From NCBI GenBank assembly GCA_001804285.1, contig MHFR01000045.1:534-62492 (forward strand): a stretch of 61,959 nucleotides of DNA, in the 5' to 3' direction. This document shows positions 12,452 through 27,002 of the stretch, piece after piece. The position numbers and the translations under genes are program-made. Within the stretch, counting starts at the first letter, position 1, and each line of letters begins with the position of its first letter. This stretch comes from Candidatus Danuiimicrobium aquiferis (GTDB taxonomy: Bacteria; Omnitrophota; Omnitrophia; Omnitrophales; Danuiimicrobiaceae). Below the pieces are notes generated by a model. It was given only the letters and a program-made list of their open reading frames with translations, was not told the DNA's origin and ran no database searches.

Positions 12452-12505
12452 TAACTCAACCTGACCGTTTTTTTTGATTGAGCAGTTTACAACACTTTAT
12501 GCTGC

Positions 12506-12689: not shown

Positions 12690-14036
12690 ATGAGAATATT
12701 TAGCGCAAATAATAGATTTTTTCTGCTATTTTTTATACTGAGTAGTTCATTCCTTTACTATTTTTTCCCTTTGCAGCCGCTTTGTGCGGAAGAGGCGATT
12801 GAGATTAAAATTGTCGCTATCAATCCCTCTCCTAAAGCTAAAACCACCGCTAAAATTATGCAGGCATTGCCGCCGGAAGTAAAACAAGAGGATGTGATAG
12901 ATGCCCAAGGGCTTCAAATTATTTATAATCCCGATCAAGACAACTATGCAGTTTCAGGGGAAATAGAATTACAGCCGCGTGAGAAAAAAACGATCACCGT
13001 TAAAGTCAGAAATGTCTGGTCGATTTCCGGCGATGAAATTCAGGAAGTTCGGGATCAATTAGCTAAAAATGTGCAGTCGCTTGCCGGAACCAAATATGAG
13101 ACGACCAGTAAATTATTAGCGGATAAAGTCCAACAAGAACTCGATAGTGTTCAAGCAGATGAAGAAAAGGCGGTCGGGATTAAACAGAAGATTGATCTTT
13201 ACCGGGCGCATGTAAAGCAGCTCGAAGCCATCAGGACAAGAGTGATTTCTTTGGAGTCCATGCGGCGGGTGGGAGATGAGCAGCAAGAAGGCGCACGAAC
13301 GGTTGAATTTAAAGTTTCGGCGTCGAACCCGTCGAACGAACCAAAGGCGATGACGGTACGGTCAGCTTTGCCCGAAGATATCACGAGTGATGCTGTTCTG
13401 GATAAGGGTGATTTTATGATGCTCTTTGACCAATCCAAGGGCCGCTTTATTGTCGAAAAGCAGGATAATTTTAATGCGAAAGAAGCCAAAACATACACAA
13501 TTATTTTAAGAGATATTTGGTATATCCCAAAACCAGAGCTGGATTATTTGGGGGAACAAACACAAAAGTTGGTGAAGCAGTTTGAAGGAAGTCAGTATGC
13601 GGGGTATGCGACTCAATTGGGAGATGTGATTAAGCAGAATCTCGACAAGATTAATGAACTGCAGGAGGAAATCGGAGCAGATGCGTCTATTAGCGATCGT
13701 AAGCGCACATTTATTCTAAATTCCGGCCGGCTGGATCTGGCCAAGAAAAAAATTAAAGAACTTCAAGAGTTATTGCTCGAATTGCCTATCACAGTCAAAA
13801 AGAAAGAAGACCAAATTAAGGCGATTCGGGAATTTCAGAAAGCGCTGGAGAAAATTCTGAGCATGGGAATCGACCCGGAGAAGAAGACGACATGGTTTAT
13901 CATTCTCGGGATTATTGCGATAGTTTTTATCGTAGGACTGATTTTTTATTTTACATGGCTTGCAAAATTAAAACAAAGTAAAGAAAAAGAAAGAAAGATT
14001 GCGTCTTCGCAACAGGCGACGCAATCTAAAACCTGA
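12690..14036 (+). CDS. Membrane-anchored protein of unknown family with an internal tandem duplication; first gene of the ATPase/T2SS-like array
   Basis: 448-aa ATG ORF. It has a hydrophobic N-terminal signal/anchor (FFLLFFILSSSFLYYFF..LCAEE). A C-terminal TM helix (WFIILGIIAIVFIVGLIFYFTWL) is followed by a basic tail. Two homologous ~125-aa modules (aa ~36-160 and ~205-330) are each followed by helical, heptad-like sequence. Confidence 0.75.
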   Translation: MRIFSANNRFFLLFFILSSSFLYYFFPLQPLCAEEAIEIKIVAINPSPKAKTTAKIMQALPPEVKQEDVIDAQGLQIIYNPDQDNYAVSGEIELQPREKKTITVKVRNVWSISGDEIQEVRDQLAKNVQSLAGTKYETTSKLLADKVQQELDSVQADEEKAVGIKQKIDLYRAHVKQLEAIRTRVISLESMRRVGDEQQEGARTVEFKVSASNPSNEPKAMTVRSALPEDITSDAVLDKGDFMMLFDQSKGRFIVEKQDNFNAKEAKTYTIILRDIWYIPKPELDYLGEQTQKLVKQFEGSQYAGYATQLGDVIKQNLDKINELQEEIGADASISDRKRTFILNSGRLDLAKKKIKELQELLLELPITVKKKEDQIKAIREFQKALEKILSMGIDPEKKTTWFIILGIIAIVFIVGLIFYFTWLAKLKQSKEKERKIASSQQATQSKT

Positions 14037-14047
14037 TTGATCCAATT

Positions 14048-15544
14048 ATGACGAGTGATTTACGATATAAAGAATTTGGCGTAGTTAAATCCGTTTGCGG
14101 TTGCGTTGTAAACGTATTAAATTTAAAGAATTGTTTTCTCGGACAACTAGTCCGTTTTGGCTATGGCACCGAGGGGATTATTATGGGATTTAATCCGGAT
14201 AGTGCCATGGTGCTTGTCGTCAAACAAAACGAGCCGCTTTCCGCCGGGACGAAAGTGGAAGCAACCCTTGAGCCGTTCAACATGCCGACGGGTGAAAAGT
14301 TTATGGGGCGTGTGGTGAATCCACTCGGAGAGGCTTTGGATGGGCAGGGCGATATTGAACCCGATGAAATGCTGCCTTATTTTGCGAAAGGGCCCGGAAT
14401 CATGGATCGAAATCCCGTTGTCGTGACGATTGAAACCGGTGTCAAGATGGTTGATACGATGCTGCCTCTTGGGCACGGCCAGAGGTCACTCATCATGGGT
14501 GATAAAATGATGGGGAAAACGACCATCGGTACGGATATTATCCTTAATCAAAAGGGAAGAAATGTGATTTGTATTTATTGTGCGATTGGGAAACCGCGGG
14601 CGACTTTGTCGCGTGTGATTAATTTACTGAGCCAAAACGGCTGTTTGGATTATACGATTGTTTGTTCTGCCGGCGCCAACACATCTCCGGGTCAGCAATA
14701 TTTAGCGCCTTACGCCGCTTGTTCTCTCGGCGAGTATTTTATGAAACGAGGCAAGCGCGTATTTGTTTTATTTGACGATTTTACCAAGCATGCGTGGTCG
14801 TATCGTGAACTTTCACTGCTGATGGGTGTTCCGCCGGGACGAGATTCTTATCCCGGAGACGTATTTTATTTGCATTCCAGGATGATTGAACGCGCTGCAC
14901 AGCTGAACGATAAATTAGGAAATGGTTCCATGACGTTTATCGCGATCGTGGAATTGCTTGAAGGAGATTTAACGGCATATGTTCCGACAAATTTGGTGTC
15001 TATGACCGACGGTCAAATTGTGTTGAATACGACCTCGTTTAACGAAGGATTCCGTCCCGCTCTGGATATTGGTTTATCGGTGTCACGTATCGGAACGAAA
15101 GTTCAGTGGAAAGCCATGAAGGATGTAAGTAAATCCATGCGTTTGGAATATATTCAATATAAAGAACTATTGCGTATCAGTAAATTGTCTACAGGCGGTA
15201 TTTCCGTGGAAACACAGGAAAAACTGGATTCGGGAAAACTATTGACCTCGTTAATTGTTCAAGGGCCCAATGTTCCGGTTGACTATGTCCGGCAAATTAT
15301 GGTTTTTTTCGTAAGAAACGAGAAGTTATTGAAAGGATTGACCCCGGAGCAGGGAGGCTTGTTTGTAGAAAATATTTTGGAATATGCCGAACAACATGAT
15401 CATGGTTTGGTCGCGGAGTTGCGCAGTAAGAAAGACTTAAAAGATGACCTGAAGCAAAGAATTACAAAAGTTGCTCAGATTTTGATCGATGATATTAAAC
15501 AGGGTTCTGTTCAAAAAGCTTCGCCTGTGGGGGCTGCGAATTGA
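14048..15544 (+). CDS. atpA: F-type ATPase alpha subunit, divergent
   Basis: It matches alpha signature blocks: ETGVKMVDTMLPLGHGQRSLIMGDKMMGKT (P-loop GxxxxGKT at 14498-14521), PGRDSYPGDVFYLHSRMIERAA, VPTNLVSMTDGQIVL and GLSVSRIG. The N-terminus looks ~20 aa shorter than E. coli alpha, based on an alignment from memory. Confidence 0.9.
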   Translation: MTSDLRYKEFGVVKSVCGCVVNVLNLKNCFLGQLVRFGYGTEGIIMGFNPDSAMVLVVKQNEPLSAGTKVEATLEPFNMPTGEKFMGRVVNPLGEALDGQGDIEPDEMLPYFAKGPGIMDRNPVVVTIETGVKMVDTMLPLGHGQRSLIMGDKMMGKTTIGTDIILNQKGRNVICIYCAIGKPRATLSRVINLLSQNGCLDYTIVCSAGANTSPGQQYLAPYAACSLGEYFMKRGKRVFVLFDDFTKHAWSYRELSLLMGVPPGRDSYPGDVFYLHSRMIERAAQLNDKLGNGSMTFIAIVELLEGDLTAYVPTNLVSMTDGQIVLNTTSFNEGFRPALDIGLSVSRIGTKVQWKAMKDVSKSMRLEYIQYKELLRISKLSTGGISVETQEKLDSGKLLTSLIVQGPNVPVDYVRQIMVFFVRNEKLLKGLTPEQGGLFVENILEYAEQHDHGLVAELRSKKDLKDDLKQRITKVAQILIDDIKQGSVQKASPVGAAN

Positions 15545-15804
15545 ACACATTTAATCTGCGCGTGTTGAGTTCTGTTCGTGTGTTGTTTAGTGAACAAGTG
15601 GCGTCTGTGTTTCTTTCGGGGGATGAAGGGGAATTTGAATTGCTTCCTTTTCATTACCCATTGATGGCTGCTCTGCCTGAAGGGGAAATTGTCATTGCCG
15701 GATATGACAAAATTCCATTACGACAGGGGGTTGTTGTTTTTTTAGATAATATCTGTACGATTATTATTGAAGAATTAGTCGCGGAATCTTTTATTGAAAA
15801 TTAA
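15541..15804 (+). CDS. atpC: F-type ATPase epsilon subunit, N-terminal beta-sandwich domain only (87 aa)
   Basis: LRVLSSVRVLFSEQVASVFLSGDEGEFELLPFHYPLMAALPEGEIVIA aligns with E. coli epsilon [48 protein letters not shown]. The C-terminal helical hairpin is absent. The TTG start overlaps the atpA stop (TTGA). Confidence 0.8.
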   Translation: MNTFNLRVLSSVRVLFSEQVASVFLSGDEGEFELLPFHYPLMAALPEGEIVIAGYDKIPLRQGVVVFLDNICTIIIEELVAESFIEN

Positions 15805-15824
15805 ACCGATTTAAAGGATGGGCC

Positions 15825-16040
15825 ATGCAAAATGCAATTGCGTTAGTAGGCATCATGTTCATCGCTGTCATGGGGCCGGCGATTGTTATTGCTGTGATCG
15901 GTTTTGCGACCATTAAAGCTTTGGGGCGGAACCCGTCTGCAGCGCCCAAGATTTTTATGGGAGTCGTGATGATGCTTATTTTTGCTGAAGCGACATCCAT
16001 TATCGCACTTTTAATCATTTACCAGTTGTTTCATCCATAA
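15825..16040 (+). CDS. atpE: F-type ATPase c subunit (71 aa hairpin)
   Basis: It has two TM helices joined by the polar loop ALGRNPSAAP (compare ARQP in E. coli). A carboxylate sits in helix 2 (FAEATS, Glu codon 15987-15989). The helix-1 GxGxGxG motif is largely replaced (VMGPAIVIAVIGFA). Confidence 0.85.
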   Translation: MQNAIALVGIMFIAVMGPAIVIAVIGFATIKALGRNPSAAPKIFMGVVMMLIFAEATSIIALLIIYQLFHP

Positions 16041-16059
16041 AAAGTGATCGGGAGGCGTT

Positions 16060-16809
16060 ATGAAGTTCATTCACATTGTTCAGTTTCTAATTTTTCAAAG
16101 CATTTTTGTCGGGATTGTTATTTATTTTCTAAGAAAAATATTTTATGCCGACACCGATAGTGCCATTAATCGGTTGGGCAGCGTCCATGAAGATATGCAG
16201 AAGAAACAGCAGGAGTTGGCACAGAAAATCGACCTAGCCGAAAAGGAATATCAAAACAAGAAAGACGAGGCGATTGCGATCAAAGACAAGCTTCAGGCAC
16301 AAGCGGTGGATGAATCCAGAAAAAAGAAAGATGAAATGATGAAAGAGGCGAAGGTGGAAGCCGATGCCCTGATTGACAAGGCGGTGAAATCGAGCGCAAA
16401 ACATTTGAAAGACATAGAAAAGAATTTTAATGTCAAAGTGATAGAATTCAGTGCGGCGCTTATCCGGTCTATTTTTAGTGAAGAAACATTGAAGAAAATC
16501 CATCAGGATTTTGTTGCGGATTTCCTGACTCGAAGTAAAGATTTGGATCTGACGAGCGTGAGCGAAGATATTTCAGATTTAACGATTAAGACAGCCCTGC
16601 CTTTGGAAGAAGAGGTGAAGGTGAAATTAAATACGATGATCCAAGCGAAATTAAAAAGAGAAATCACGTTTACTGAAGTCGTTGATAAAGAGCTTGTGGC
16701 GGGGATTTTGCTCCAACTTGGGACGCTTGTGTTGGATGTGTCCGTCAGTAACGCTATTCGTGAGAAAAATTTGGAAATGCGGCGCGATCAGGAAATTGCA
16801 AACCGGTAA
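16060..16809 (+). CDS. atpF: F-type ATPase b subunit fused to a delta (OSCP) C-terminal-like segment (249 aa)
   Basis: It has an N-terminal TM helix followed by a long charged helix typical of b. The C-terminal ~65 aa (from ~16582), ALPLEEEVKVKLNTMIQAKLKREITFTEVVDKELVAGILLQLGTLVLDVSVSNAIRE, resembles the E. coli delta C-terminus (...[35 protein letters not shown]). No separate delta gene is present. Confidence 0.7.
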   Translation: MKFIHIVQFLIFQSIFVGIVIYFLRKIFYADTDSAINRLGSVHEDMQKKQQELAQKIDLAEKEYQNKKDEAIAIKDKLQAQAVDESRKKKDEMMKEAKVEADALIDKAVKSSAKHLKDIEKNFNVKVIEFSAALIRSIFSEETLKKIHQDFVADFLTRSKDLDLTSVSEDISDLTIKTALPLEEEVKVKLNTMIQAKLKREITFTEVVDKELVAGILLQLGTLVLDVSVSNAIREKNLEMRRDQEIANR

Positions 16810-16818
16810 TGACAAAAC

Positions 16819-17688
16819 ATGGGTAAGGTTTCATCTCTTAAGGCAGAAGTAGAAGAAGTAAGGGATCTTGTTGAGATTTTTAGCGTATTGAAGGATGTCG
16901 CGACAAACCGTTATTATCAGATGATTGGACAGCAGGAAGATTTATCGAATTTTTTTAAGGAATTCGATGTGTTTTTTAATATGTTGGGTTCTTTGAATAC
17001 GAGTAGTCCGCTGATTAGAAATACGAATCCGGTAACTATTATTCTTACAGTGACTGCTGAGCCAAGTTTTATGTCAATTTTAAATTCCAAGGTTTGTAAT
17101 ACAGCTTTGGAAGAGTACAAGAAACGTCCGAATTCGAAAGTGGTTTGTGTCGGATGGCGTGGAGAAGATAAATGCAAGCAGCTCGGGATGGAAGTGGATC
17201 AAACGTATAAAAATGTTGAAGAGTTTGGACGGTATCAGTCCGCGCTTAAAATCCGGGATTATTTGATGGAGAAAGTGATAAGCGGAAAAGCGGGGCGGGT
17301 AATTTGTGTGAGTGTTTTTGCGCAAAATTTCAGCATGCTTAAACCTAAGGTTGTGACTCTTCTTCCCGCCGAAGATATGATTAAAAAGGGAGCTGCTGAA
17401 GGAAAACGGTCGAATCTTGGGCAAGGAAGAGATTTTATTCTTGAATCCGGCGTGGATGCGTTGATGCGGGTGATTGCCGATGTTTGGGTAACGACAAGAA
17501 TTGTAGAGATCCTTTCGGAAACCAAACTTGCCGAATTTGCGGCTCAAGCGCAGCAGCTTGATTCCAGTATCGACGGGTTATCTGCGGAGCGGAAAGGATT
17601 AAACATTCAATTTAAAAAGGCGTTGCGGGCAAATCTGAATAAAGCGATACGTGAGGTTGTTGTTGCAAGCAAAATAAAGAAAAATTAA
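16819..17688 (+). CDS. atpG: F-type ATPase gamma subunit, highly divergent
   Basis: Its size (289 aa) and its position between b and beta fit gamma. The N- and C-terminal helices show weak gamma-like patterns (C-terminus LNIQFKKALRANLNKAIREVVVAS versus the canonical NKxRQAxITxELxEIV). Confidence 0.65.
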   Translation: MGKVSSLKAEVEEVRDLVEIFSVLKDVATNRYYQMIGQQEDLSNFFKEFDVFFNMLGSLNTSSPLIRNTNPVTIILTVTAEPSFMSILNSKVCNTALEEYKKRPNSKVVCVGWRGEDKCKQLGMEVDQTYKNVEEFGRYQSALKIRDYLMEKVISGKAGRVICVSVFAQNFSMLKPKVVTLLPAEDMIKKGAAEGKRSNLGQGRDFILESGVDALMRVIADVWVTTRIVEILSETKLAEFAAQAQQLDSSIDGLSAERKGLNIQFKKALRANLNKAIREVVVASKIKKN

Positions 17689-17713
17689 CATTTCATTACA
17701 GGGAAAGGTCTGA

Positions 17714-19129
<1,416 letters not shown>

Positions 19130-19141
19130 AGGAGTTTGTTC

Positions 19142-21337
19142 ATGAATAACAGAATGGAAAAGGCGTGTTTTAATATTTTGGTCAGTTCCGGAAATATTGC
19201 GCGGGAAAAATTGGAAGAAGTTTATAATGAAGCGGAAAATTCCAAATTTTCATTTACAGAGTTAATTGTCCAAAAAGGGGTATTGAAAGAACCCGAACTT
19301 CTTAAGATTTATTCGAAGAATTTGGGGATCCCTTATCTCAGTCTGAAAGTTTTGACGGTGGAACAGGCCGTTATTGATAAGATTCCTGTGAAATTTGCAT
19401 GGTATTACAAGTTTTTCCCTATTCAATTAACAGAGAGAAAGTTAACGATTGCATTATCACGTCTCTTGGATGTGAATGCACTCGATGAAATTCGTCTCGG
19501 ACTGGGACTCGATATTGACTTCGTATTTGCCGCGTCGTTTGATATCGAAGAAATGCTGAAAAAGTATTATGGTCTTGGCGCGACTACGGTTGAAAAGATT
19601 CTTTCGGAAGATACGCAGCCAAGATCCGCGGGAAAGATGGACAGGGCCGATGAAGGAGTTGAAGATATTGAAAAGCTCGCAGAAACTGCTTCGGTCGGAC
19701 AGCTCGTGAATCAAATTATCCTGGATGCGTTTCAGAAGCGGGCGAGTGATATTCATATTGAACCTCTTCGGGGAGATGTCAGAATTCGCTACCGCATTGA
19801 CGGGGAGCTACAGGAGGCCAAAGTGCCCCCGGAAATGAAAAAATTCTATCTTCCAATTTTATCCCGTATCAAAATTATGGCCAATCTCAATATTGTTGAA
19901 AGACGCTTGCCGCAGGACGGAAAAGCGCGTGTTAAAACACGGGATCAGTCTTTAGATTTGCGCATATCAACGATGCCGACTCCTCACGGTGAAAGCATGG
20001 CGATCAGAATTCTACCCCATAAAACAGTTTTCAATTTAAATGAACTTGGCTTTGGGAAAGAGCAGGTTAAAATTTTCGAGGATCTTATTTATAGGCCGAA
20101 TGGCATTATCTTTGTGACCGGACCAACCGGAAGCGGGAAAAGCACGACTTTATATGCTGCCATGAATACACTCAACACGATTAAGAAAAAAATCATTACG
20201 ATTGAAGACCCTGTAGAGTATGAAATTGAAGGAATTACACAAATTCAAGTTCAATCTGAAGTCGGCCTTACTTTTTCAAGAGGGCTGAGAAGTGTGCTTC
20301 GTCATGATCCTGATGTGATGATGGTCGGAGAAGTCCGGGATCTTGAAACGGCAGATATTGCAATTCGTTCGGCATTAACAGGGCATTTGATTTTATCCAC
20401 GCTTCACACAAATGATGCGGCAACCGGAGTCACACGACTTCTTGATATCGGTGTCGAACCGTATTTGGTTGCTTCCAGCGTGATCGCTTTTATTGCGCAG
20501 CGGCTTGTTCGCGTGATATGTTCAAATTGCAAAGAAGTCGATAAAGAAGTGACGCCTGACATCAAACATATGATTCGAAAAGAGTTGAAATTGGGGCCGG
20601 TTGCTGATGTAAAGGTTTATAGGGGAAAGGGATGCGAAGAATGCAATCGGACGGGTTATTCCGGCCGGGTTGCTATTTATGAAGTGTTGCTTATGAACGA
20701 GGTCATTCGGAAACTGATATTCATGGGATCATCAGCCGAAGAAATTAAGAGGCGAGCAAGACAGTTGGGGATGAAAACGCTTCGTCAAGACGGTTGGAAG
20801 AAAGCTTTGGATGGTATCACCACGCCCGCGGAAATCTTAAAAGTAGCACCTAATGATGATGAAGTGCTGGAATTGTCTGAGAAATTGGTATTGCCAGAAG
20901 AACAAGGCGTTGAGACGGTCATTCCCGATCCCGAAACGCAAGCTGCGTCGAGTGATAATCGAAAATTTGAACGTGTCCAGATTAAATTTCATATTACGTA
21001 TCGAACTATCGGTGCGGAAGCGGGGAAGGAAACGGAGTTTATTAAGCAGGAATTGACCGCTCAAACTGAAAATATCAGTGCTGGAGGAATGGCGTTTATT
21101 ACCAACCATGGACTCAAAGAAGGTGATGTCCTGGATTTAAAACTGGATTTAAAGGATGGCGAGAAGCCCGTTCAGTGCCTTGGAAAAGTTTTGAGAGTCA
21201 CTCAACTCATCGAAGGGGAGGGTGATGGAGAACATTTTGTCTTTAGGATTGCGATTACATTTTTAGCCATTAGTAGTTCAGAGCGGTTACGGATAGAAAA
21301 TTTCTGTAAGAACGAAACCAGAAATGAAAACATTTAG
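19142..21337 (+). CDS. gspE: GspE/PilB-family secretion ATPase with a C-terminal PilZ domain
   Basis: It has an N-terminal T2SSE_N-like domain, Walker A GPTGSGKST, MVGEVRD and LILSTLHTND blocks, and the tetracysteine CSNC...CEEC. The C-terminal ~120 aa carries RKFER (20960-20974) and NISAGG (21071-21088), which match PilZ RxxxR and (D/N)xSxxG. The ATG at 19142 follows AAAGGAG; the TTG at 19136 in the ORF track is an alternative start. Confidence 0.9.
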   Translation: MNNRMEKACFNILVSSGNIAREKLEEVYNEAENSKFSFTELIVQKGVLKEPELLKIYSKNLGIPYLSLKVLTVEQAVIDKIPVKFAWYYKFFPIQLTERKLTIALSRLLDVNALDEIRLGLGLDIDFVFAASFDIEEMLKKYYGLGATTVEKILSEDTQPRSAGKMDRADEGVEDIEKLAETASVGQLVNQIILDAFQKRASDIHIEPLRGDVRIRYRIDGELQEAKVPPEMKKFYLPILSRIKIMANLNIVERRLPQDGKARVKTRDQSLDLRISTMPTPHGESMAIRILPHKTVFNLNELGFGKEQVKIFEDLIYRPNGIIFVTGPTGSGKSTTLYAAMNTLNTIKKKIITIEDPVEYEIEGITQIQVQSEVGLTFSRGLRSVLRHDPDVMMVGEVRDLETADIAIRSALTGHLILSTLHTNDAATGVTRLLDIGVEPYLVASSVIAFIAQRLVRVICSNCKEVDKEVTPDIKHMIRKELKLGPVADVKVYRGKGCEECNRTGYSGRVAIYEVLLMNEVIRKLIFMGSSAEEIKRRARQLGMKTLRQDGWKKALDGITTPAEILKVAPNDDEVLELSEKLVLPEEQGVETVIPDPETQAASSDNRKFERVQIKFHITYRTIGAEAGKETEFIKQELTAQTENISAGGMAFITNHGLKEGDVLDLKLDLKDGEKPVQCLGKVLRVTQLIEGEGDGEHFVFRIAITFLAISSSERLRIENFCKNETRNENI

Positions 21338-22568
21338 TTATACTGCCAAAAAAGGACCGATAGAACTTCGCACGGGAGCGGTCCAAGCCGAATCGGTAGA
21401 TCAAGCGATAGATTTGATTAGCAACATGGGGTTGGTCCCTGTGACTGTTGATGAGTCTTTGACATCTGGAGGGGCGAACGATCGAATGACGCAGGCGATC
21501 AAAGAGCCTCCTCGGTTAACCATTTCAAAAAAGGCAGTTAAATCCCGCGATTTAATTATGTTTTATGAACAACTTGCAAGATTGGTGAAGTCCGGAATTC
21601 CAATATTAAAAGCTATCGGAATTGCTTCGGATCAAACCGGCAACCCGGCATTTCAAAAGATTTTAAATCAAATTCAAAACGAAGTCCAACAAGGGAAAGA
21701 GTTGTCCTCTGCGCTTGCTGATCATCCGGGCGTTTTCTCGATGTTTGATATTTCAATGATTAAAGCCGGTGAAAGTGTCGGCAAACTGGAAGAAGCGTTA
21801 ACGCGGATCGCTGCCTATCGCGATGAACAGGAAAAAATAAAATCGAAAGTCAGAGCAGCATTGGCCTATCCGGCGTTTATGCTGGCGGTTGGAGTGGGAA
21901 CCGTTGTTTTTATGATTGCCTATGTGATTCCGCAATTTTCACGTTTTTTTGCTGATTTAGGGCAAAACTTACCTTTGTTAACGCGTTTGTTGATTCAATT
22001 TAGTAAATGGGGACAAACTTGGTTTCCGGTCATTACGCTGATATTTATATGTTTGTTTTTTCTCTGCGGAAAATTCCGGAAAACGGCGAAAGGTAAATTA
22101 TTTTTTGACGAATTAGTGTTGAAAATCCCCCTGATTGGCAAAATTATTTTAAAAACTGAAATTGAAAAATTAAGCCGGACTTTAGAAATGTTGATTCGAA
22201 GCGGGTTGCCTTTGCTAACGGCGATCAGTGTGGCATTGCTTGTGATTGATAACGAGGTGCTTCGTGCCGGATTAGGAAAATGTAAACAGATTGTTGAGGA
22301 TGGCGGCGGTTTAGGTGAGGGACTCCGACAAAGCAATCTTTTTCCCAGTTTTGTTTTTAACATGGTGCAGGTGGGGGAGGAATCTGGGAACCTCGAAGAT
22401 GCTTTTACGAATGTTGCCGAATGGTATGAACGGGATATTAATGAATCGATTCGGGTGATGATGACGTTGATTGAGCCGGCTCTCATTTTAGTGATAGGAC
22501 TTATGATTGGTGTAATTGTTATGGCTGTTTTATTGCCGGTGTTTAGCATTAATACTTTAGCGCAGTGA
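21324..22568 (+). CDS. gspF: GspF/PilC-family inner-membrane platform protein
   Basis: 414 aa with duplicated cytoplasmic T2SSF-type domains and three TM segments. The N-terminus FSYTAKKGPIELRTGAVQAES...LISNMGLVPV is typical of the family. The start overlaps gspE by 14 nt. Confidence 0.88.
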   Translation: MKTFSYTAKKGPIELRTGAVQAESVDQAIDLISNMGLVPVTVDESLTSGGANDRMTQAIKEPPRLTISKKAVKSRDLIMFYEQLARLVKSGIPILKAIGIASDQTGNPAFQKILNQIQNEVQQGKELSSALADHPGVFSMFDISMIKAGESVGKLEEALTRIAAYRDEQEKIKSKVRAALAYPAFMLAVGVGTVVFMIAYVIPQFSRFFADLGQNLPLLTRLLIQFSKWGQTWFPVITLIFICLFFLCGKFRKTAKGKLFFDELVLKIPLIGKIILKTEIEKLSRTLEMLIRSGLPLLTAISVALLVIDNEVLRAGLGKCKQIVEDGGGLGEGLRQSNLFPSFVFNMVQVGEESGNLEDAFTNVAEWYERDINESIRVMMTLIEPALILVIGLMIGVIVMAVLLPVFSINTLAQ

Positions 22569-22601
22569 GTATGTAACCTGTTTAAAATAAAGGGGTTAGA
22601 G

Positions 22602-23042
22602 ATGATTCACAAAATCAATACGTATCGACGAAAACTAAAAGGATTTACGCTTATCGAAATTTTATTGGTTGTTATTATTATCGGAACATTATCAGCAATG
22701 CTCATTCCCCGATTGAGTGGGCGCTCAGATCAGGCCAGAATAGCAGCGGCTAAAGCGGATGTCACCGTCAATATCCCAACGGTTTTGAAGTTATATGAAT
22801 TGGATAATGGTTTTTTCCCTTCCACCGAGCAAGGGCTCAAAGGATTGATGGTGAAACCCATAACGGAGCCGATTCCTCAGAACTGGAATGGCCCGTATTT
22901 GGAGAATGAGCCTATCGATCCGTGGGGGCGACCCTATCAATATAAATCCCCGGGTGAGCATCGTCCTCATGATTATGATTTGTATTCTTTGGGAAAGAAT
23001 GCTGCTGCCGAAAAAACGGATGATGATATTAAGAACTGGTAA
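22602..23042 (+). CDS. gspG: GspG-type major pseudopilin
   Basis: The prepilin leader ends KG|FTLIEILLVVIIIG with Glu at +5. It carries the hallmark GspG C-terminal block DPWGRPYQYKSPGEH..YDLYSLGKN. Confidence 0.9.
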   Translation: MIHKINTYRRKLKGFTLIEILLVVIIIGTLSAMLIPRLSGRSDQARIAAAKADVTVNIPTVLKLYELDNGFFPSTEQGLKGLMVKPITEPIPQNWNGPYLENEPIDPWGRPYQYKSPGEHRPHDYDLYSLGKNAAAEKTDDDIKNW

Positions 23043-23048
23043 TCAGCT

Positions 23049-23447
23049 ATGAGGCTAACTCATCAATCCGGTTTTTCACTTGTTGAGGTGATGTTGGCTA
23101 CCCTCGTCTTATCTGTTGGTTTAGTCACAATTTACCGTCCGTTGCTTTCGGCGTTAGATGCCGTGGAATATGGAGATGCTCGCTTGGAGATGAATCGGTT
23201 GATTTCCAATCAAATTTGTGAATGGGAGCAAATTGTTTTCCAAACTGGCAGGCCGATGACAAATCAAAAGGGAGTTCTGATAGGAAGTAAAAAAGCTTTT
23301 CAATATTATGCCGATATTAAAAGTATAGATTCTAATCCGATATTACAGCATGCTAAAGTGACAATGACGTGGGAAGGCTTAGGAAGAAAAAAGCAGGCAA
23401 CAAGGGATTTTTATGTTGGCGGAACGCCGGTTGAAACGACAGCGTAA
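23049..23447 (+). CDS. Minor pseudopilin (GspI-like by size)
   Basis: It has a prepilin-type N-terminus SG|FSLVEVMLATLVLSVGL and is 132 aa. It sits 6 nt after gspG. Confidence 0.6.
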   Translation: MRLTHQSGFSLVEVMLATLVLSVGLVTIYRPLLSALDAVEYGDARLEMNRLISNQICEWEQIVFQTGRPMTNQKGVLIGSKKAFQYYADIKSIDSNPILQHAKVTMTWEGLGRKKQATRDFYVGGTPVETTA

Positions 23448-24069
23448 TTCAGAAGGAGCGAGACGCTCCCCAAAGGGTTTTTCCTTAATTGAGTTGTTAA
23501 TTGCCGTTTCAATTATTTCTTTTCTTGGAGTTGTTATCTATTCGGCATTGTCACAAGGGCTTAAAATCTGGAAGAGGACAACCGTTGAGAAGCCGGAAAT
23601 CAATGTCGAGTTGATGCTTGAAAAATTTGCGTCGGATTTACGCAATGCATCCAATAATTCTATTGGCCGGTTTGCGGGAGAAGAAAAAGCAGTTCGTTTT
23701 CTTGTTTTAGGAACATCATTGAAGAGCCCAGAAAATGAAGGCGGGATTCCGATGCCTTATCAAGTTCGCTACGAATTTGATGCGGGCAAAGGCATTTTTC
23801 GAAAGGTTCAAACAGATTACCGGGACTTGCTATATCAGACCGGCGAAAAGGCGGGCATTGAAGTAGAAAAGATTAATTTAAAGGATTGTCGAATTCGGTA
23901 TTATTATTATAATGCTGAAGAAAACTCGGCCATATGGAAAAGTTTGTGGCAAGAAGAGTGTTTGCCAAGGGCAGTTAAAATTGATATGGGTTACAGCACA
24001 CAATACGGGGTAAGGACAGTGACGAAAACAATCGCGGTTCCGGCAAACTATTGCCAGGCAAAGGGTTAA
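23413..24069 (+). CDS. Minor pseudopilin (GspJ/GspH-like by size)
   Basis: It has a prepilin-type N-terminus KG|FSLIELLIAVSIISFLG and is 218 aa. It overlaps the preceding gene by 35 nt. Confidence 0.55.
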   Translation: MLAERRLKRQRNSEGARRSPKGFSLIELLIAVSIISFLGVVIYSALSQGLKIWKRTTVEKPEINVELMLEKFASDLRNASNNSIGRFAGEEKAVRFLVLGTSLKSPENEGGIPMPYQVRYEFDAGKGIFRKVQTDYRDLLYQTGEKAGIEVEKINLKDCRIRYYYYNAEENSAIWKSLWQEECLPRAVKIDMGYSTQYGVRTVTKTIAVPANYCQAKG

Positions 24070-24073
24070 AAGC

Positions 24074-25591
24074 GTGGAAACTCTCGAGACAACTATCTCA
24101 ACTCAACAAAAATTTGGGACCATCCCGCAAAAAAGCAAATCCTTGATGGATTTGGTGGGCATTGATTTGAGCGGAAATATTGTGAAAATCGTTCACGCGA
24201 AAGTTCAGGGCGGCCGGATTGTTGCTGAAAATGTGGTTCACAACAAATTTGCGGAAAATGCAGACGATGAAATCAGCCAGTTTATTGTAAAAACGCTCAA
24301 GAAATTTAGAGTCAGAACCAAAAAAGCCATTTGCGTGATTCCGTCGAAATTGTTGATCACGAAAAATGTTGACATGCCCTCCCGCGATCGCAACGAAATC
24401 GATAAAATTGTCGATTTACAAGCCGGCCGATTCACCCCTTATTCACGAACTGAAATCGTCATTGATTACCTTTGTATGGACACTCCCGAACAATATTACA
24501 CAAATGTTTTCTTGATTATCATGCATCGCAAAATGGTCGAACGCTATTTAAAAATTTTTGAAAAAGCACAATTAGACCTCGACAAAGTGGCGGTGTCGTC
24601 GGAAGGTATGGGGATTGCCTATCATCATATTGCAGATACGAAGTTGGCAGACACGCCGGTCGGGGGGATTCATTTTTCCAATGACTGTTCGGATTTGACA
24701 ATTATTGATCGACAGCAGCTCGTTTTTATTCGGAATATTCCGATTGGTTTGGATCATCTTAAGGAAAATAAAGAGTGGGCGCTTGGGGAATTTCTGAAGC
24801 AATTGAATAAATCAATGTTGACGTATCAAAATCAAGGTGTTGGTAGGCCCATTGCGGTCTTGGTTGTGACAGGATTGGTTGAGGAGCTTGATTACATTGA
24901 AAAAGAAATTCGCGAATCAGTTCCTTATGTTTTTGCAAGCAAGATTCCGATTAAAATGGTTCCTTATCAGACGTATTTTAGTTTCCGTGACGGAACAACG
25001 GAAGGAGCTCGGGGTGATGGCAAAATGTCTTTTTTTGAGATTTTATCTTGTTTGTTTTCCTATCCAAGGTTGCAGATAGATTTGATTCCGAAGGAGATTA
25101 AACTCAAACGGAAATTTCAGGAAAGCGGCCATGATGTGATCATGATTGCGATTCTGCTTTTTGTGAACATGTTTCTGATTTGCGGTTTTCTTGCGGGGAA
25201 GATGGTCATCAAGAGCAATTATTTGGAAAATTTGACTCAGTTGTATAAAAAAACGGTTGAAGAGTCTAATAGTATCAGGCAAATGGCTGACCGGACAAAA
25301 TTCCTTCGAAGTATTTTAGAGTCGCGGGGAAAGGGATTGGGTGCGTTTCAACGGGTGACGGGAATGATTGGACAGGAGATTTATCTTTCGGAATTCCGGT
25401 ATGGCAATGACCGGAAAATCGTGATAGTCGGGACGGCTGACTCCATGTCTCGTGTGTTTAATTTTGTGACAGAATTGGAACAATCCGGCTATTTCGAAAG
25501 TGTTAAGACCAATCAGACAAAATCCCGCCGCGAAGCGGGCAAGGATGTGGCCGATTTTGAAATTGAAACCGTCATAAGGGAAAATATTTGA
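24074..25591 (+). CDS. GspL-like assembly protein (PilM-type cytoplasmic domain + TM + PilN-type periplasmic domain)
   Basis: The N-terminal VGIDLSGNIVKIVHAKV... is typical of PilM/GspL actin-like domains. There is a single TM helix (VIMIAILLFVNMFLICGFLAG) preceded by LIPKEIKLKRK, as in PilN. GTG start. Confidence 0.65.
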   Translation: METLETTISTQQKFGTIPQKSKSLMDLVGIDLSGNIVKIVHAKVQGGRIVAENVVHNKFAENADDEISQFIVKTLKKFRVRTKKAICVIPSKLLITKNVDMPSRDRNEIDKIVDLQAGRFTPYSRTEIVIDYLCMDTPEQYYTNVFLIIMHRKMVERYLKIFEKAQLDLDKVAVSSEGMGIAYHHIADTKLADTPVGGIHFSNDCSDLTIIDRQQLVFIRNIPIGLDHLKENKEWALGEFLKQLNKSMLTYQNQGVGRPIAVLVVTGLVEELDYIEKEIRESVPYVFASKIPIKMVPYQTYFSFRDGTTEGARGDGKMSFFEILSCLFSYPRLQIDLIPKEIKLKRKFQESGHDVIMIAILLFVNMFLICGFLAGKMVIKSNYLENLTQLYKKTVEESNSIRQMADRTKFLRSILESRGKGLGAFQRVTGMIGQEIYLSEFRYGNDRKIVIVGTADSMSRVFNFVTELEQSGYFESVKTNQTKSRREAGKDVADFEIETVIRENI

Positions 25592-25609
25592 GCAGAAAGG
25601 AGTCTTCTT

Positions 25610-26284
25610 TTGTTTGATCAAGCGATTGCGTATTATCAGAAGTCACCAAAATTGACAAAAATACTTTTTCTCGTAGCGTCTGCGGTTGTGTCGTTTGCCA
25701 TTATATATTTTTTGGTTTTAGGCCCAATCTTTTCACAGTTGAATACGATGAGTGCTGAAATTAAAGCCAAGTCGCAAACGATCAAACAAAATTTGCGAAT
25801 GCTTTCAATGAAAAACAGTATTATGCGAGACAATGATAAGGTTGCCAACTACTTGAGTGAAGGGAATCTGTCAAAAGAAGAAATTATTGCGGGCCATCTT
25901 CATGAGGTTGAAAATCTTGCCAACATGCATCAAGTCACTATCAATAAGATCGAATCAGGCAATATTGCGGAAAACCCTTTATGCAAAAAATACGAAATTT
26001 CAGTCGATTGTGAAGGAGTGTTAAGCGATATATTGGCATTTATGAATGACTTGGAAGATTCGGAATATTTGTTTCAAATTACTAATTACCGTTTAAATCC
26101 GAAGACCAAACAGGGAACAGTCATCAAGGCTTTTCTTGGCGTTTCCCGGATCGTAGTGAGCGCCGAAGGGGTAAAAGAACTTCAGAAAGAATCAGCTGAA
26201 AACGCTCAGAATTCCGCGACTATTAAAACGAATCAAACGTCTGAAAAAATAGAAAAGAAGGCTGAAAATGTTCAACAAAAATAG
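25610..26284 (+). CDS. GspM/PilO-like bitopic assembly protein
   Basis: It has an N-terminal TM helix, then a coiled segment (LNTMSAEIKAKSQTIKQNLRML), then a small alpha/beta domain (VDCEGVLSDILAFMNDLEDSEYLFQITNYRLNP). The TTG start is 6 nt after AAAGGAG. Confidence 0.5.
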   Translation: MFDQAIAYYQKSPKLTKILFLVASAVVSFAIIYFLVLGPIFSQLNTMSAEIKAKSQTIKQNLRMLSMKNSIMRDNDKVANYLSEGNLSKEEIIAGHLHEVENLANMHQVTINKIESGNIAENPLCKKYEISVDCEGVLSDILAFMNDLEDSEYLFQITNYRLNPKTKQGTVIKAFLGVSRIVVSAEGVKELQKESAENAQNSATIKTNQTSEKIEKKAENVQQK

Positions 26285-27002
26285 CATTTATGTGTTATGT
26301 GTTTGCATAATTTGCATAACGTGTTTGTCCGGAAGTGCGCTTGCCGAACCTACGGGGAAAGGAGATCAAGAGTTTAATGCCTTATATAAAGCCGCTCTCG
26401 ACAGTTTGGGGAAAGAAAACGATCAAGAAGCATTGGATATGTTCCTGAAGGCCCTTGATCTAAAACCTGATATACAAAATGCTCCTTTTTTTAATCATTT
26501 AGGATTTGCATATATGCAGGCCGGTGATGTGGAGGAAGCGATCGTTCGTTTTAAAACAGCTCTTCGGATAGATCCGAAATATGCAGATGCCTATTCAAAT
26601 TTAGGCTCCGCTTACGCAAGTCAGGAGACGGGGACTGATTTAGCGGTTGAGCAATATCAGAAGGCGATTGAATTGGATCCCAAACAAGGGAAGGCGTATT
26701 TGGGGCTTGGTTGGGTTTATTTGATTCGCAAACACCATCCGCAAGAGTCAATTAAACAGTTTACGAAGGCGATTGAAATTGATTCCACAATGGACTTGGC
26801 GTTATATGGATTGGGGCTATCTTATGTGGCTTCGGGGAAAAGTGAGCTATCGATTAAGCCCATTTCAACGCTTCGTGCACATAATAAATTCGAGTATGCC
26901 GCTGCGATCGAAGCGTCTATCAAACAAGTTGAGACAAAATCGCAGCCTGCTTCAATGACGTCACAGCCCCCTCAGCCTGGAACCGAACCGGGACCGGCAT
27001 AA
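26268..27002 (+). CDS. Secreted TPR-repeat protein (PilF/PilW-like position at the end of the array)
   Basis: It has a signal peptide (...CLSGSALA|EP). It carries at least four TPR-like units (e.g. AYSNLGSAYASQETGTDLAVEQYQKAIELDP and AYLGLGWVYLIRKHHPQESIKQFTKAIEID) and a Pro/Gln-rich tail. Confidence 0.7.
   Translation: MFNKNSIYVLCVCIICITCLSGSALAEPTGKGDQEFNALYKAALDSLGKENDQEALDMFLKALDLKPDIQNAPFFNHLGFAYMQAGDVEEAIVRFKTALRIDPKYADAYSNLGSAYASQETGTDLAVEQYQKAIELDPKQGKAYLGLGWVYLIRKHHPQESIKQFTKAIEIDSTMDLALYGLGLSYVASGKSELSIKPISTLRAHNKFEYAAAIEASIKQVETKSQPASMTSQPPQPGTEPGPA

Follow-up and report, generated by a model that had tools for sequence, protein, structure and literature searches.

Organization of the locus

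We analysed a 61,959-nucleotide stretch of contig MHFR01000045.1 from Candidatus Danuiimicrobium aquiferis (Omnitrophota), referred to here as the window. Between positions 12690 and 27002 it contains an array of 15 ORFs, all on the + strand, whose gene identities were taken from Pfam and NCBIfam profiles. The array and its surroundings contain the following features.

5..12241, +, giant NW-repeat secreted protein, 3' part, at least 4078 aa (ORF and repeats)
12242..12689, no strand, spacer of REP-like palindromic elements between giant gene and array (RNA fold, recurring 12-mers)
12690..14036, +, X448, putative detached membrane-anchor module of the giant protein (AF2; homology to fused giant C-termini)
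14048..15544, +, F-type alpha (PF00006, PF00306; TIGR00962 489.7 bits, cutoff 484.45)
15541..15804, +, epsilon, beta-sandwich domain only, 87 aa (PF02823, residues 4-77)
15825..16040, +, c subunit, 71 aa (PF00137; TM2 Glu55, loop GRNPSAAPK)
16060..16809, +, stator, b (TM and coiled coil) fused to the delta/OSCP C-terminal domain (PF00213, positions 97-167 of 172)
16819..17688, +, gamma, full length, very divergent (PF00231 78.5 bits; TIGR01146 51.8 bits, cutoff 194)
17717..19129, +, F-type beta (TIGR01039 525.3 bits, cutoff 462.85; motifs including PADDMTDP)
19136..21337, +, GspE/PilB-type assembly ATPase (PF00437, N-terminal MshEN PF05157, C-terminal PilZ PF07238)
21324..22568, +, GspF platform protein (PF00482 twice; TIGR02120 355.6 bits, PilC models at most 275)
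22602..23042, +, GspG major pseudopilin (PF08334, N_methyl; TIGR01710 147.1 bits, cutoff 88.85)
23049..24069, +, two overlapping minor pseudopilin genes, 132 aa and 218 aa (prepilin-type N-terminal motif in both)
24074..25591, +, GspL-like protein: PilM-type cytoplasmic domain, TM, PilN-type periplasmic domain (PF11104, PF05137)
25610..26284, +, single-pass membrane protein in the GspM/PilO position (weak T2SSM match, E 0.017; one TM)
26268..27002, +, secreted TPR protein, PilW/Tgl-like, last array gene (TPR families)
31407..32489, +, GspK minor pseudopilin (PF21687; NF037980 97 bits)

The ORF calls and junction lengths of an earlier note on this DNA were reproduced. In order, the junctions are +11, -4, +20, +19, +9 and +28 nt, the gspE start, and then -14, +33, +6, -35, +4, +18 and -17 nt. 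The atpD-gspE junction measures +6 nt if translation starts at TTG 19136, or +12 nt if it starts at ATG 19142. Upstream of the gspE start the sequence reads ...TAAAGGAGT, and the AAAGGAG ribosome-binding site shares bases with the atpD stop codon, as the earlier note had stated. Promoter-like and terminator-like matches inside the array occur at shuffle level (39 versus 32 +/- 6 and 19 versus 16 +/- 4 in shuffled sequence, respectively).

The array had been placed directly downstream of the giant gene. The two do adjoin, but 448 nt of very stable palindromic sequence intervene (RNA fold -158 kcal/mol, z = -9.5 versus shuffles); in relatives this gap is usually below 100 nt. Twelve-mers of the spacer hairpins recur near positions 38400, 41990, 42890 and 44300.

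The giant protein and its anchor

The giant protein ends in a non-repeat, Ser/Thr-rich helical domain. More than 60 related loci have, upstream of the array, an ORF whose extreme C-terminus matches the last 300 aa of the giant protein at 24-34 % identity. At one locus, L049, the homologue of the giant protein is short (1324 aa) and displays a Sec signal peptide, a Laminin_G_3 domain, GINWxD repeats and a tail as in the giant.

The first array gene encodes X448, which was previously regarded as an unknown membrane protein of 448 aa. It starts with a signal peptide, followed by a beta-sandwich plus three-helix bundle in two copies, and closes with a TM helix and a short, Lys-rich tail in the cytoplasm. 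X448 matched nothing in Pfam or NCBIfam, and a fold search of its AF2 model (pLDDT 83.7, pTM 0.65) against the PDB gave no match (best E 0.02, TM below 0.15). It is homologous, however, to the C-terminal 230 aa of the giant ORFs in L085, L087 and L093 (BLASTP E 3e-18), three loci of the group described below as type B, where the module is fused to the giant C-terminus. Because of this homology to a C-terminal anchor fused in giant ORFs, X448 can be tied to the giant protein. As judged from its sequence, X448 represents the membrane anchor of the giant protein as a separate polypeptide, newly recognized here.

A remodelled F-type ATPase

The ATPase genes of the array resemble canonical F1Fo in several respects. 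Alpha and beta score above the curated atpA and atpD cutoffs and have every catalytic motif, including the alpha P-loop (GDKMMGKT) and Arg finger (SVSRIG), and both are predicted to be catalytically competent. The closest relatives of beta are all from Omnitrophota, at 60-74 % identity. The array also has recognizable gamma, epsilon, c and b subunits and a delta C-terminal domain. Among its proteins, c shows the highest conservation (median identity 68 %).

In other respects the complex differs from canonical F1Fo. The gene order is rearranged, the genes sit inside a secretion operon, and b is fused to half of delta: residues 162-233 of the fusion align to residues 97-168 of E. coli delta, a weak alignment to a b subunit covers residues 11-112, and the N-terminal domain of delta is absent. 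Alpha starts about 18 residues later than canonical chains, with its residue 3 aligning to residues 21-29 of solved alpha structures. The possible N-terminal extension is at most 9 aa in 81 of 84 loci, and in 79 of these there is none at all. Alpha lacks the N-terminal delta-binding segment; the alpha N-terminus and the delta N-terminal domain have been lost together. The C-terminal helices of epsilon are lost as well. The epsilon gene has a TTG start and a 4-nt overlap with alpha; its product is 81-113 aa long across the clade, and the gene is missing from L001, L002, L005-L009 and L047. As the array has neither subunit a nor a delta N-terminal domain, the ATPase set cannot be called complete-looking, the term used in the earlier note.

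N-ATPase (atpDCQRBEFAG) likewise has no separate delta gene. The best NCBIfam match of the b-delta fusion is the N-ATPase b subunit (TIGR03321), to which it aligns weakly end to end, at 47 bits and far under the cutoff; alpha and beta reach 452 and 449 bits on N-ATPase models with cutoffs of about 750. N-ATPase operons include a, AtpQ and AtpR, in an order unlike that of the array.

A T2SS-like machine

The genes after beta are best described as T2SS-like. GspG passes its equivalog cutoff, and GspF, GspK and the secretin of L049 all obtain their best scores with T2SS models. At L049 the short length of the giant gene leaves the sequence beyond it visible, and the secretin is located upstream of that gene. 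A GspL-like protein, a PilM-PilN fusion with one TM helix (residues 351-369), and a GspM-like protein follow in the usual order, and the position of the latter after PilMN is kept in related loci. The minor pseudopilins have weak GspJ/PilV matches, and the TPR protein scores 63.8 bits as PilW and 48 bits as Tgl, both under cutoffs. GspK lies 4.4 kb downstream of the array here, and inside it in L003 and many other relatives. No PilT gene was found within the array.

This machine differs from a T2SS in three ways. First, a giant cargo/anchor gene and an F-type ATPase are placed between the secretin and the platform genes. Second, GspE scores equally as PilB (TIGR02533 569 bits, TIGR02538 566 bits) and has MshEN and PilZ domains; it is probably controlled by c-di-GMP. 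Third, no prepilin peptidase was found within the window.

Conservation across Omnitrophota

Loci from 80 GTDB species share one order, which we call type A: NW-repeat ORF, X448, alpha, (epsilon), c, (c2), b-delta, gamma, beta, GspE, GspF, GspG and so on. In 60 of 65 GTDB species loci the next gene after beta is GspE, often at a spacing of 2 nt or with a 4-nt overlap, and in all 65 GspE lies within 1 kb. The X448 gene is directly upstream of alpha in 67/70 loci, with an NW-repeat ORF upstream of it in 62/68. Conservation of the atpD-gspE adjacency and of the 448-aa gene, which the earlier note had proposed as a check, is therefore borne out, and the array behaves as a single conserved unit linked to the giant gene. 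The arrangement is conserved, beyond mere compactness, and the window region is one type A copy of an Omnitrophota-wide supra-operon.

A second Omnitrophota alpha clade (46 % identity) defines type B, with the order epsilon-c-b-delta-alpha-gamma-beta. Here too a giant ORF comes before the array and GspE/GspF after it, with GspE following beta in 9/9 loci that have enough downstream sequence. This survey is small and uses non-dereplicated metagenome contigs, of which L086 and L096 share an identical c subunit. The association between array and giant gene thus persists under a different internal order.

An F-type ATPase beside T2SS/T4P genes is already known, contrary to the earlier note. Williams et al. 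2021 (PMC8542988, Suppl. Table 5) list F-type ATPase genes adjoining T2SS/T4P genes in two Ca. Aceula MAGs, which correspond to L035 and L030 and have the order AtpA-C-E-F-G-D as here. In Seymour et al. 2023 (PMC10066038), ‘symbiotic’ non-respiratory F-type ATPase/T4aP loci are reported from all Omnitrophota classes, with co-location within 10 kb on 57/66 contigs and an alpha clade separate from the respiratory one. These loci and ours are the same thing: alpha and beta of the array fall in an Omnitrophota-only clade, and the ATPase cluster is directly beside PilB/GspE and PilC/GspF. The papers name the neighbour T4aP, whereas here GspG, GspF, GspK and the secretin score best as T2SS. The earlier note was correct that giant genes adjoin T2SS-like genes in Omnitrophota (West-Roberts 2023), although the giant-gene context reported there is different and has no ATPase. 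A full-text search of PMC10066038 and PMC8542988 found no mention that subunit a is missing, that delta, epsilon and alpha are truncated or that the c carboxylate can be lost; nor did it find the c2 paralogue, the anchor X448 or the immediately upstream large/giant repeat gene.

Subunit a and the c-ring carboxylate

With E. coli AtpB as query, no AtpB-like ORF was found in the window, in 84 type-A loci or in 12 type-B loci; the same query found one in 28/32 canonical operons. The search covers the arrays, and a divergent or unlinked a could escape it. An a as divergent as gamma, epsilon, c and b would also escape annotation, because these subunits already fall below curated thresholds and KofamScan. 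The manual annotation of the two Aceula MAGs, which are 92 % complete, lists only AtpA, C, E, F, G and D, and no subunit a.

The TM2 Glu is present in 76/77 type-A c subunits in the alignment, and the type-A c2 paralogue likewise retains it. This near-invariance, together with the top conservation of c, is what would be expected if ion binding and a partner resembling a were still important. In type B, by contrast, the TM2 carboxylate is replaced in 6/14 c subunits (Gln in 5, Val in 1). Each of these arrays has a single c gene, and every beta in them retains Walker A and GER; among type-B alpha ORFs, the P-loop is kept in 13/16 and the Arg finger in 15/16. Loss of the c carboxylate alongside intact beta catalytic motifs is newly found here, and it suggests that the ion path is dispensable in some relatives of the array.

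A model for the array and its alternatives

Based on these results, we propose a model in which the ATPase is a non-chemiosmotic, ATP-hydrolysing rotary module that works without subunit a and serves the secretion system and the giant protein. We hold this model with moderate confidence. As no ion-channel subunit is present and the complex is set between the giant protein with its anchor and a T2SS-like machine, it probably acts as a motor driven by ATP and not as the ATP synthase of the cell.

The first part of the model concerns the components. The large or giant repeat protein would be exported by Sec, with X448 as its inner-membrane anchor. Beside it would stand a remodelled rotary ATPase made of alpha3beta3, gamma, a short epsilon, a c-ring and a single b-delta(CTD) stator, and an inner-membrane pseudopilus platform made of GspE-PilZ, GspF, GspG, minor pseudopilins, the GspL-like and GspM-like proteins and TPR proteins.

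The second part involves the motor. The complex, with an epsilon that has no inhibitory C-terminal domain, would hydrolyse ATP and turn gamma(epsilon) and the c-ring against the b-delta stator, and ion translocation would not be obligatory. We know of no experimental precedent for an ATP-driven c-ring without subunit a. The work may then be passed inside the membrane to an array-encoded partner, which would be the giant-protein anchor or else the GspF/GspL platform, and may help to export, hold or move the giant surface protein. Membership of one operon, the sole basis for this step, suggests that ATPase and secretion are functionally coupled.

The alternative that survives best, which we regard as possible but rather unlikely, is that the complex is an ion-pumping F-type ATPase whose subunit a is unlinked or unrecognized. 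A local H+ (or Na+) gradient built by ATP hydrolysis would then energize export of the giant protein through Sec/SecDF and the T2SS, and the cells would be fermentative or acetogenic, with a V-type enzyme as the main ATP synthase. T2SS export requires proton-motive force besides ATP. The retention of c Glu55 in type A and of the c2 Glu, the canonical scores of alpha and beta, the availability of a V-type enzyme for ATP synthesis, and an epsilon whose missing C-terminal domain fits a hydrolysis-biased enzyme are all consistent with pumping. Nevertheless, neither roughly 96 arrays nor the two curated MAGs yielded an a gene, although the AtpB query does find one in most canonical operons; moreover, delta has lost its N-terminal domain and alpha its N-terminus, and a catalytic F1 persists in type-B arrays without the carboxylate.

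It is very improbable that the ATPase is a homologue of the Mycoplasma type 2/3 F1-like (G1) gliding ATPase powering surface motility, as Seymour et al. 2023 would have it. Their alpha tree (PMC10066038) groups the clade with Mycoplasma type 2/3, and both are non-respiratory F1 derivatives. The G1-ATPase of Mycoplasma mobile and the type 2 and 3 complexes are thought to be mechanical rather than chemiosmotic, and the array ATPase may resemble them in its mode of action. However, on the MMOB1660 and MSC_0619 models alpha scored 383 and 269 bits (cutoffs 600 and 520; canonical alpha models 490-515 bits) and beta 395 and 382 bits (cutoffs 850 and 570; canonical atpD 525 bits). As these scores are far under all four curated family cutoffs, the array ATPase is not a type 2/3 member. 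Against PDB chains, beta matched G1-beta (9io5_A) at 314 bits and F1 beta at 457 bits. Mycoplasma G1-type beta has an N-terminal extension, unlike the array beta. The Mycoplasma clusters also differ from the array in that the latter retains c-ring and b-type stator subunits, and no gliding-machinery genes are present.

We give very little credence to an ordinary housekeeping ATP synthase brought next to secretion genes by genome compaction, with the linkage passively inherited. Alpha and beta exceed the canonical cutoffs, Omnitrophota genomes are small, and no other atp or V-type genes lie within the 62-kb window. On the other hand, the linkage is kept in at least 80 species and through internal rearrangement of the atp genes, subunit a is absent, and the carboxylate is lost in some lineages. 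Another member of the phylum, Kaelpia imicola, has a canonical atpBEFHAGD operon without secretion linkage. In addition, both Aceula MAGs have a full V-type ATP synthase operon besides the F-type array, and V/A-type subunits have a prevalence of 70-99 % across the rest of class Gorgyraeia. The presence of a V-type ATP synthase alongside the array is new here, and it contradicts, in relatives, the suggestion that the array holds the only ATP synthase of the cell. From this, and from the separate alpha clade of Seymour et al. 2023, we infer that the complex is not a housekeeping ATP synthase.

Last, F1 relatives in T3SS export are a precedent for a secretion machine that is served by a relative of rotary ATPases and encoded together with it, and the array adjoins a secretion system, but it is highly doubtful that the F1-like hexamer is a FliI/FliH/FliJ-style docking or unfolding ATPase at the export gate of the giant protein: FliI-FliH-FliJ is a different branch of the family, a homo-hexamer without a membrane ring, whereas the array encodes a true alpha/beta hetero-hexamer with a full gamma filling the central pore, a c-ring and a stator; alpha and beta scored 169-192 bits on FliI/SctN models, so far under the cutoffs (380-620) that they fall outside that family; and the short homologue of the giant protein carries a Sec signal peptide.

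Gene content of the array

ORF listing and translation confirmed that the array at 12690-27002 consists of 15 consecutive ORFs on the + strand, as the earlier note had read it. All the junction lengths that it gave were reproduced. The sole difference lies in the choice of a start for gspE, which may be TTG at 19136 (+6) or ATG at 19142 (+12), 6-12 nt past the atpD stop. The sequence also bears out the ribosome-binding site of gspE, AAAGGAG, over the atpD stop codon. We scanned the array for sigma-70 promoters and intrinsic terminators, but consensus matches were no commoner than in shuffled sequence; thus, the scan is uninformative on transcription units.

Gene products of the array at 12690-27002 (assigned with Pfam and NCBIfam unless stated otherwise)
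Gene 1, + strand: X448, 448 aa, no Pfam/NCBIfam annotation
Gene 2, + strand: F-type alpha
Gene 3, + strand: epsilon, 87 aa, beta-sandwich only
Gene 4, + strand: c, 71 aa
Gene 5, + strand: b fused to the C-terminal half of delta/OSCP, 249 aa
Gene 6, + strand: gamma
Gene 7, + strand: beta, 470 aa
Gene 8, + strand: GspE, with N-terminal MshEN and C-terminal PilZ
Gene 9, + strand: GspF
Gene 10, + strand: GspG
Genes 11-12, + strand: two minor pseudopilins
Gene 13, + strand: PilM-TM-PilN protein with GspL architecture
Gene 14, + strand: single-pass protein, weak GspM match
Gene 15 (last), + strand: secreted TPR protein

A GspK gene follows 4.4 kb downstream of the array end. Measured against T2SS models, GspG passes (TIGR01710, 147.1 bits vs 88.85). 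GspF and GspK have T2SS models as their best match but stay under the cutoffs (355.6 bits vs 424 and 97 vs 130), and GspE is tied between T2SS and PilB (569 vs 566 bits). The GspL-like and GspM-like proteins were assigned from their architecture and a weak match. Neither an outer-membrane secretin nor a prepilin peptidase is present in the window, which starts inside the giant gene.

Conservation of the linkage in two gene orders

An alpha alignment was searched against one genome per GTDB species and gave 80 loci (related loci from genomes and metagenome contigs carry L numbers here). Most of them belong to Omnitrophota MAGs. Labels of Planctomycetia/-ales, Elusimicrobia or Patescibacteria occur on about 20, which were taken to be mislabelled bins. 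The best 120 homologues of beta are all from Omnitrophica/-ota or unnamed organisms, at 59-74 % identity, which places the window's organism in Omnitrophota. Judged on similarity matches and loci rather than on a tree, alpha and beta appear to form an Omnitrophota-specific clade apart from the respiratory F-type enzymes.

Essentially one gene order, that of the window, was found among these loci, and we call it type A: NW-repeat ORF, X448, alpha, (epsilon), c, (c2), b-delta, gamma, beta, GspE and GspF, followed by (M-type peptidase), GspG, pseudopilins, (GspK) and PilMN. GspE stands directly after beta in 60/65 loci and within 1 kb in all 65, the commonest gaps being 2 nt or a 4-nt overlap. 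X448 lies directly upstream of alpha in 67/70 loci, and 62 of 68 have a homologue of the window's giant protein upstream of X448. Thus, the arrangement that the earlier note had singled out for checking in relatives, atpD next to gspE together with X448 and NW-repeat genes, is conserved. The giant homologue runs past the contig end in 58 of the 62 loci, as repeat-rich giant genes tend to do in assemblies.

An exhaustive alpha search exposed, via P0148, a second Omnitrophota alpha clade with 46 % identity to the window alpha. Two look-ups and one metagenome scan supplied the context of this second type, type B: a giant or large ORF, (X448-like), epsilon, c, b-delta, alpha, gamma, beta, (MshEN), GspE-PilZ and GspF onward. 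GspE follows beta in each of the nine type-B loci with enough downstream sequence. As the linkage is kept in both atp gene orders, the association of ATPase, secretion genes and giant gene has survived rearrangement, which argues against a passively inherited accident.

Several loci carry additional genes or copies. About half of the type-A loci (~35 besides L003) have an extra gene for a c-like hairpin, c2, placed after c and before b-delta. It encodes 71-84 aa with the loop YPSKTP and a mostly conserved TM2 Glu (6286-6531 in L003); the window and its nearest relatives lack it. A Peptidase_MA_2 (HExxH) gene of ~250-290 aa lies between GspF and GspG in many arrays (L003 13335-14096; L086 17289-18155; a 780-970-nt GspF-GspG gap in many loci), and is missing from the window. 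In type-B arrays, beta and GspE are separated by a short independent gene, which in L085 (13751-14218) encodes a 155-aa MshEN-domain protein and in L086 (13729-13947) is a 72-aa ORF; the GspE of L086 has no MshEN domain. L008 and L009 are two type-A arrays in one MAG (JACPXL01, contigs 33 and 22) with proteins 70-99 % identical and an NW-repeat gene each. Either one genome holds both arrays, or strains were binned together.

Subunits present and missing

The catalytic core of the ATPase is intact. Alpha has its P-loop (GDKMMGKT) and Arg finger (SVSRIG), beta has its P-loop, GER and PADDMTDP motifs, and both pass the canonical models (alpha 489.7 bits vs a cutoff of 484.45, TIGR00962; beta 525.3 vs 462.85, TIGR01039). 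Gamma, epsilon, c and b-delta are recognisable, yet they score far below curated cutoffs. The earlier note had described this set as complete-looking. That description could not be upheld, because subunit a and the N-terminal domain of delta are missing.

The delta part of the stator corresponds to OSCP profile positions 97-167 and aligns with E. coli delta 97-168. As only the C-terminal half is matched, the N-terminal domain is missing. In known enzymes this domain clamps the N-termini of alpha. The window alpha starts ~18 residues later than solved alpha chains, and this late start is common to 81/84 related loci. These findings suggest that alpha lost its N-terminus, and delta its N-terminal domain, in coordination. 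Epsilon is only 81-113 aa long across the clade, so that its inhibitory C-terminal helices are missing, and the gene is absent from the closest relatives (L001, L002, L005-L009 and L047).

Subunit a was sought with family profiles (ATP-synt_A) and with E. coli AtpB; neither gave a similar ORF in the 62-kb window. As a control we used 32 canonical operons caught incidentally in the metagenome scan. An AtpB-like ORF (24-40 % identity) was found upstream of alpha in 28 of them, and the same query gave no match in 84 type-A loci, 12 type-B loci or the window. Two Aceula MAGs, both 92 % complete, likewise have no subunit a in a manually annotated table, which does give AtpB for one member of Omnitrophota with a canonical atpBEFHAGD operon (PMC8542988, Suppl. 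Table 5). In the KO data of Seymour 2023, the sF-bearing genome 221 has K02111 and K02112 without K02108. It also has no K02110 although c exists, so KO absence is weak evidence.

Candidates for subunit a were considered and rejected. X448, as a divergent form of it, was set aside because its only TM helix is C-terminal and its periplasmic domains are large. The three ~190-aa genes upstream of the repeat gene in L049 encode secreted paralogues. A 503-aa nine-TM protein (40798-42309) has the wrong size and lies in a polysaccharide-cluster context.

The c subunit is the most conserved protein of the array (median identity 68 %). Of 77 type-A c subunits, 76 have the TM2 Glu, which is Glu55 in the window. 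Among 14 type-B c subunits, this residue is Glu in eight, Gln in five (L085, L087, L090, L091 and L093) and Val in one (L098), while the RNPS loop and the remaining hairpin are conserved. Each of the Gln/Val arrays has a single c gene, and in the beta subunits Walker A and the catalytic GER motif are intact. Across the type-B alpha ORFs, the P-loop is present in 13/16 and the Arg finger in 15/16. The TM2 carboxylate is indispensable for ion translocation. As it is replaced in six type-B arrays, at least these lineages would run an F1 that is competent in catalysis on a ring unable to carry ions.

The giant protein and its anchor

In >60 loci, the extreme C-terminus of the upstream ORF aligns to the final 300 residues, outside the repeats, of the giant protein in the window; thus, these genes are orthologous. 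A short homologue in L049 (1324 aa) carries a Sec signal peptide and a Laminin_G_3 domain, and shares the GINWxD repeats and the tail. Upstream of it lie genes for a secretin (239.5 bits on the GspD model, below 351), a TPR protein and three small secreted paralogues, so that a T2SS-like operon encloses both the repeat-protein gene and the ATPase. The three paralogues (2713-4536, ~190 aa, no family match) stand in tandem, with the secretin and TPR genes on one side and the short NW-repeat gene on the other.

X448 has a signal peptide and two copies of a unit made of a beta-sandwich and a three-helix bundle; a single TM helix at the C-terminus leads into a short basic tail. AF2 gave a confident model (pLDDT 83.7), and a fold search against PDB found no counterpart (best E 0.02, TM below 0.15). 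The X448 module is homologous to the last ~230 residues of the giant ORFs in the type-B loci L085, L087 and L093 (BLASTP E 3e-18). In these three loci it is fused to the giant protein, TM helix included; at other loci it is a separate gene of 232-475 aa. Based on the fusion, we conclude that X448 is the predicted membrane anchor of the giant protein.

The 448-nt spacer between the giant gene and X448 (12242-12689) contains REP-like palindromic elements (fold z = -9.5), with further copies near 38389-38414, 41983-42000, 42806-42930 and 44297-44330. There are two hairpin types, GCCCCTCACCCTACCC...GGGCAGGGGCGAGGG and GTCATTCCCG...CGGGAATGAC. As the same junction is usually <100 nt in relatives, the elements look inserted in the window. 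They may terminate or stabilise the giant-gene transcript.

Relation to published loci

The array is a further case of a published Omnitrophota locus. The earlier note knew of no described T2SS or T4P locus operonic with F-type genes; the adjacency was already reported in Williams 2021 and Seymour 2023. Ca. Aceula lacicola and Ca. A. meridiana were annotated with AtpA, AtpC, AtpE, AtpF, AtpG and AtpD (PMC8542988, Suppl. Table 5), and the cluster contigs of that study are our L035 and L030. Seymour 2023 (PMC10066038) found a non-respiratory F-type ATPase/T4aP locus in 56/111 Velamenicoccia species and in every class, with the ATPase and T4aP within 10 kb on 57/66 contigs. In the window the genes are 6-12 nt apart, well inside this <10 kb distance. 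We found no later characterisation of the system in the literature. A 2026 preprint on 176 complete genomes reports alpha and beta in 125/176, and gamma in only 30/176 at a strict threshold (10.64898/2026.06.07.730766). The earlier note had also mentioned giant genes adjoining T2SS-like genes in Omnitrophota; West-Roberts et al. (2023) do tie giant genes, other ones, to T2SS-like loci, and do not mention an ATPase.

What appears to go beyond these papers is the absence of subunit a relative to a control, the probable co-loss of the alpha and delta N-termini, the two gene orders, the apparently dispensable carboxylate, X448 as a putative anchor, and the repeat gene and ATPase inside a T2SS-like operon. 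With the basic adjacency published, the gain is in the anatomy and the particular tests that it allows.

A model for the array

F-type ATPases are a textbook chemiosmotic machine. Carboxylate loss in some lineages, the constant placing inside a T2SS-like operon and the neighbouring giant and anchor genes point to non-bioenergetic work. On balance, we favour the view that the array encodes a non-housekeeping, ATP-hydrolysing F-type module that serves the T2SS-like machine and the anchored giant protein without obligatory ion translocation. In this model the enzyme would run in the direction of ATP hydrolysis, and torque would be passed to a putative partner encoded in the same array.

A more specific form of the model is possible, and we offer it tentatively. 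The array may encode a new kind of membrane motor, an F-type rotary ATPase without an ion channel, in which ATP hydrolysis alone turns a c-ring that engages the transmembrane anchor of a giant, envelope-spanning surface protein or the GspF/GspL platform. The channel would have been shed as subunit a and, in some lineages, as the c-ring carboxylate as well. The partner of the ring would be X448, the fused C-terminal module or the GspF/GspL platform, and during prey attachment the motor would reel in or rotate the giant fibre, or extrude it through the secretin. Such a motor would in effect do with ATP what ion-driven rotary motors do in secretion and gliding. An F-type complex with c-ring and stator kept and subunit a gone would be the third independent case, besides T3SS/flagellar export and Mycoplasma gliding, of a rotary ATPase recruited for work outside bioenergetics, and the first to keep the membrane rotor. 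Additionally, the giant proteins of Omnitrophota would gain a testable set of partners, namely anchor, ATPase, pseudopilus platform and secretin. This set bears on how these ultra-small bacteria, probably predators or epibionts, attach to hosts.

The main rival reading supposes that export is energised by an ion pump whose subunit a would be unlinked or divergent. Its best arguments are the near-invariant Glu of type-A c subunits and the very high conservation of c; we consider it rather unlikely.

It has been proposed, by analogy with Mycoplasma, that the locus functions in attachment or motility (Seymour 2023, PMC10066038). Homology to the Mycoplasma gliding machinery seems very improbable to us, as it is contradicted by family-model scores and by the membrane subunits. 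On the type 2/3 models the window alpha and beta score 383 vs a cutoff of 600 and 395 vs 850 (MMOB1660/1670), and 269 vs 520 and 382 vs 570 (MSC_0619/0618); all four scores are below those on canonical models. Solved F1 alpha/beta structures match at 424-457 bits and Mycoplasma G1 beta at 314 bits. G1 has no Fo subunits, whereas the window has c and b-delta genes, and G1 beta has a long N-terminal extension, whereas the 470-aa window beta aligns to 9io5_A 300-751. The N-ATPase models also score below cutoff (alpha 452 vs 750.5, TIGR03324; beta 448.8 vs 752, TIGR03305).

A housekeeping synthase is scarcely credible. The window shares the catalytic alpha/beta pair with canonical F1Fo, but it has no subunit a, and in place of a peripheral stalk of a b dimer and full delta it has only the delta C-terminal domain fused to b. 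The preservation of the linkage through rearrangement also contradicts this reading. The earlier note's alternative, that these genes are the cell's only ATP synthase, fails in relatives: both Aceula MAGs have a V-type operon on other contigs (AtpK, I, D, B, A and E), which the authors of that study treat as the ATP synthase (PMC8542988), and V/A-type subunits occur in 70-99 % of the rest of class Gorgyraeia (preprint 10.64898/2026.06.07.730766). No second rotary ATPase lies within the 62-kb window. A FliI-like export ATPase is no more credible, since alpha and beta reach just 169-192 bits on the FliI/SctN (FliI/YscN) models, whose cutoffs are 380-620.

In the source data of Seymour 2023, genomes 221 and 58 have V-type I and K (K02123 and K02124), with V-type A/B not called. 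This KO pattern is that of a genome with only F-type alpha and beta KOs, and it is probably a threshold artefact.

Genes downstream of the array

At 27104-30861 the window has DUF2304 and GT2 genes on the - strand, then an 849-aa STT3 gene. This trio of DUF2304, glycosyltransferase 2 and STT3 follows the array in the window and in its closest relatives, among them L001 (16406-18657) and L002, and hints at N-glycosylation of the pseudopilins or the giant protein. A polysaccharide/glycan cluster at 34890-42914, with no direct link to the array, encodes a flippase-like Polysacc_synt protein, a sulfatase, a DegT aminotransferase, a GT2 and the unannotated 503-aa nine-TM protein.
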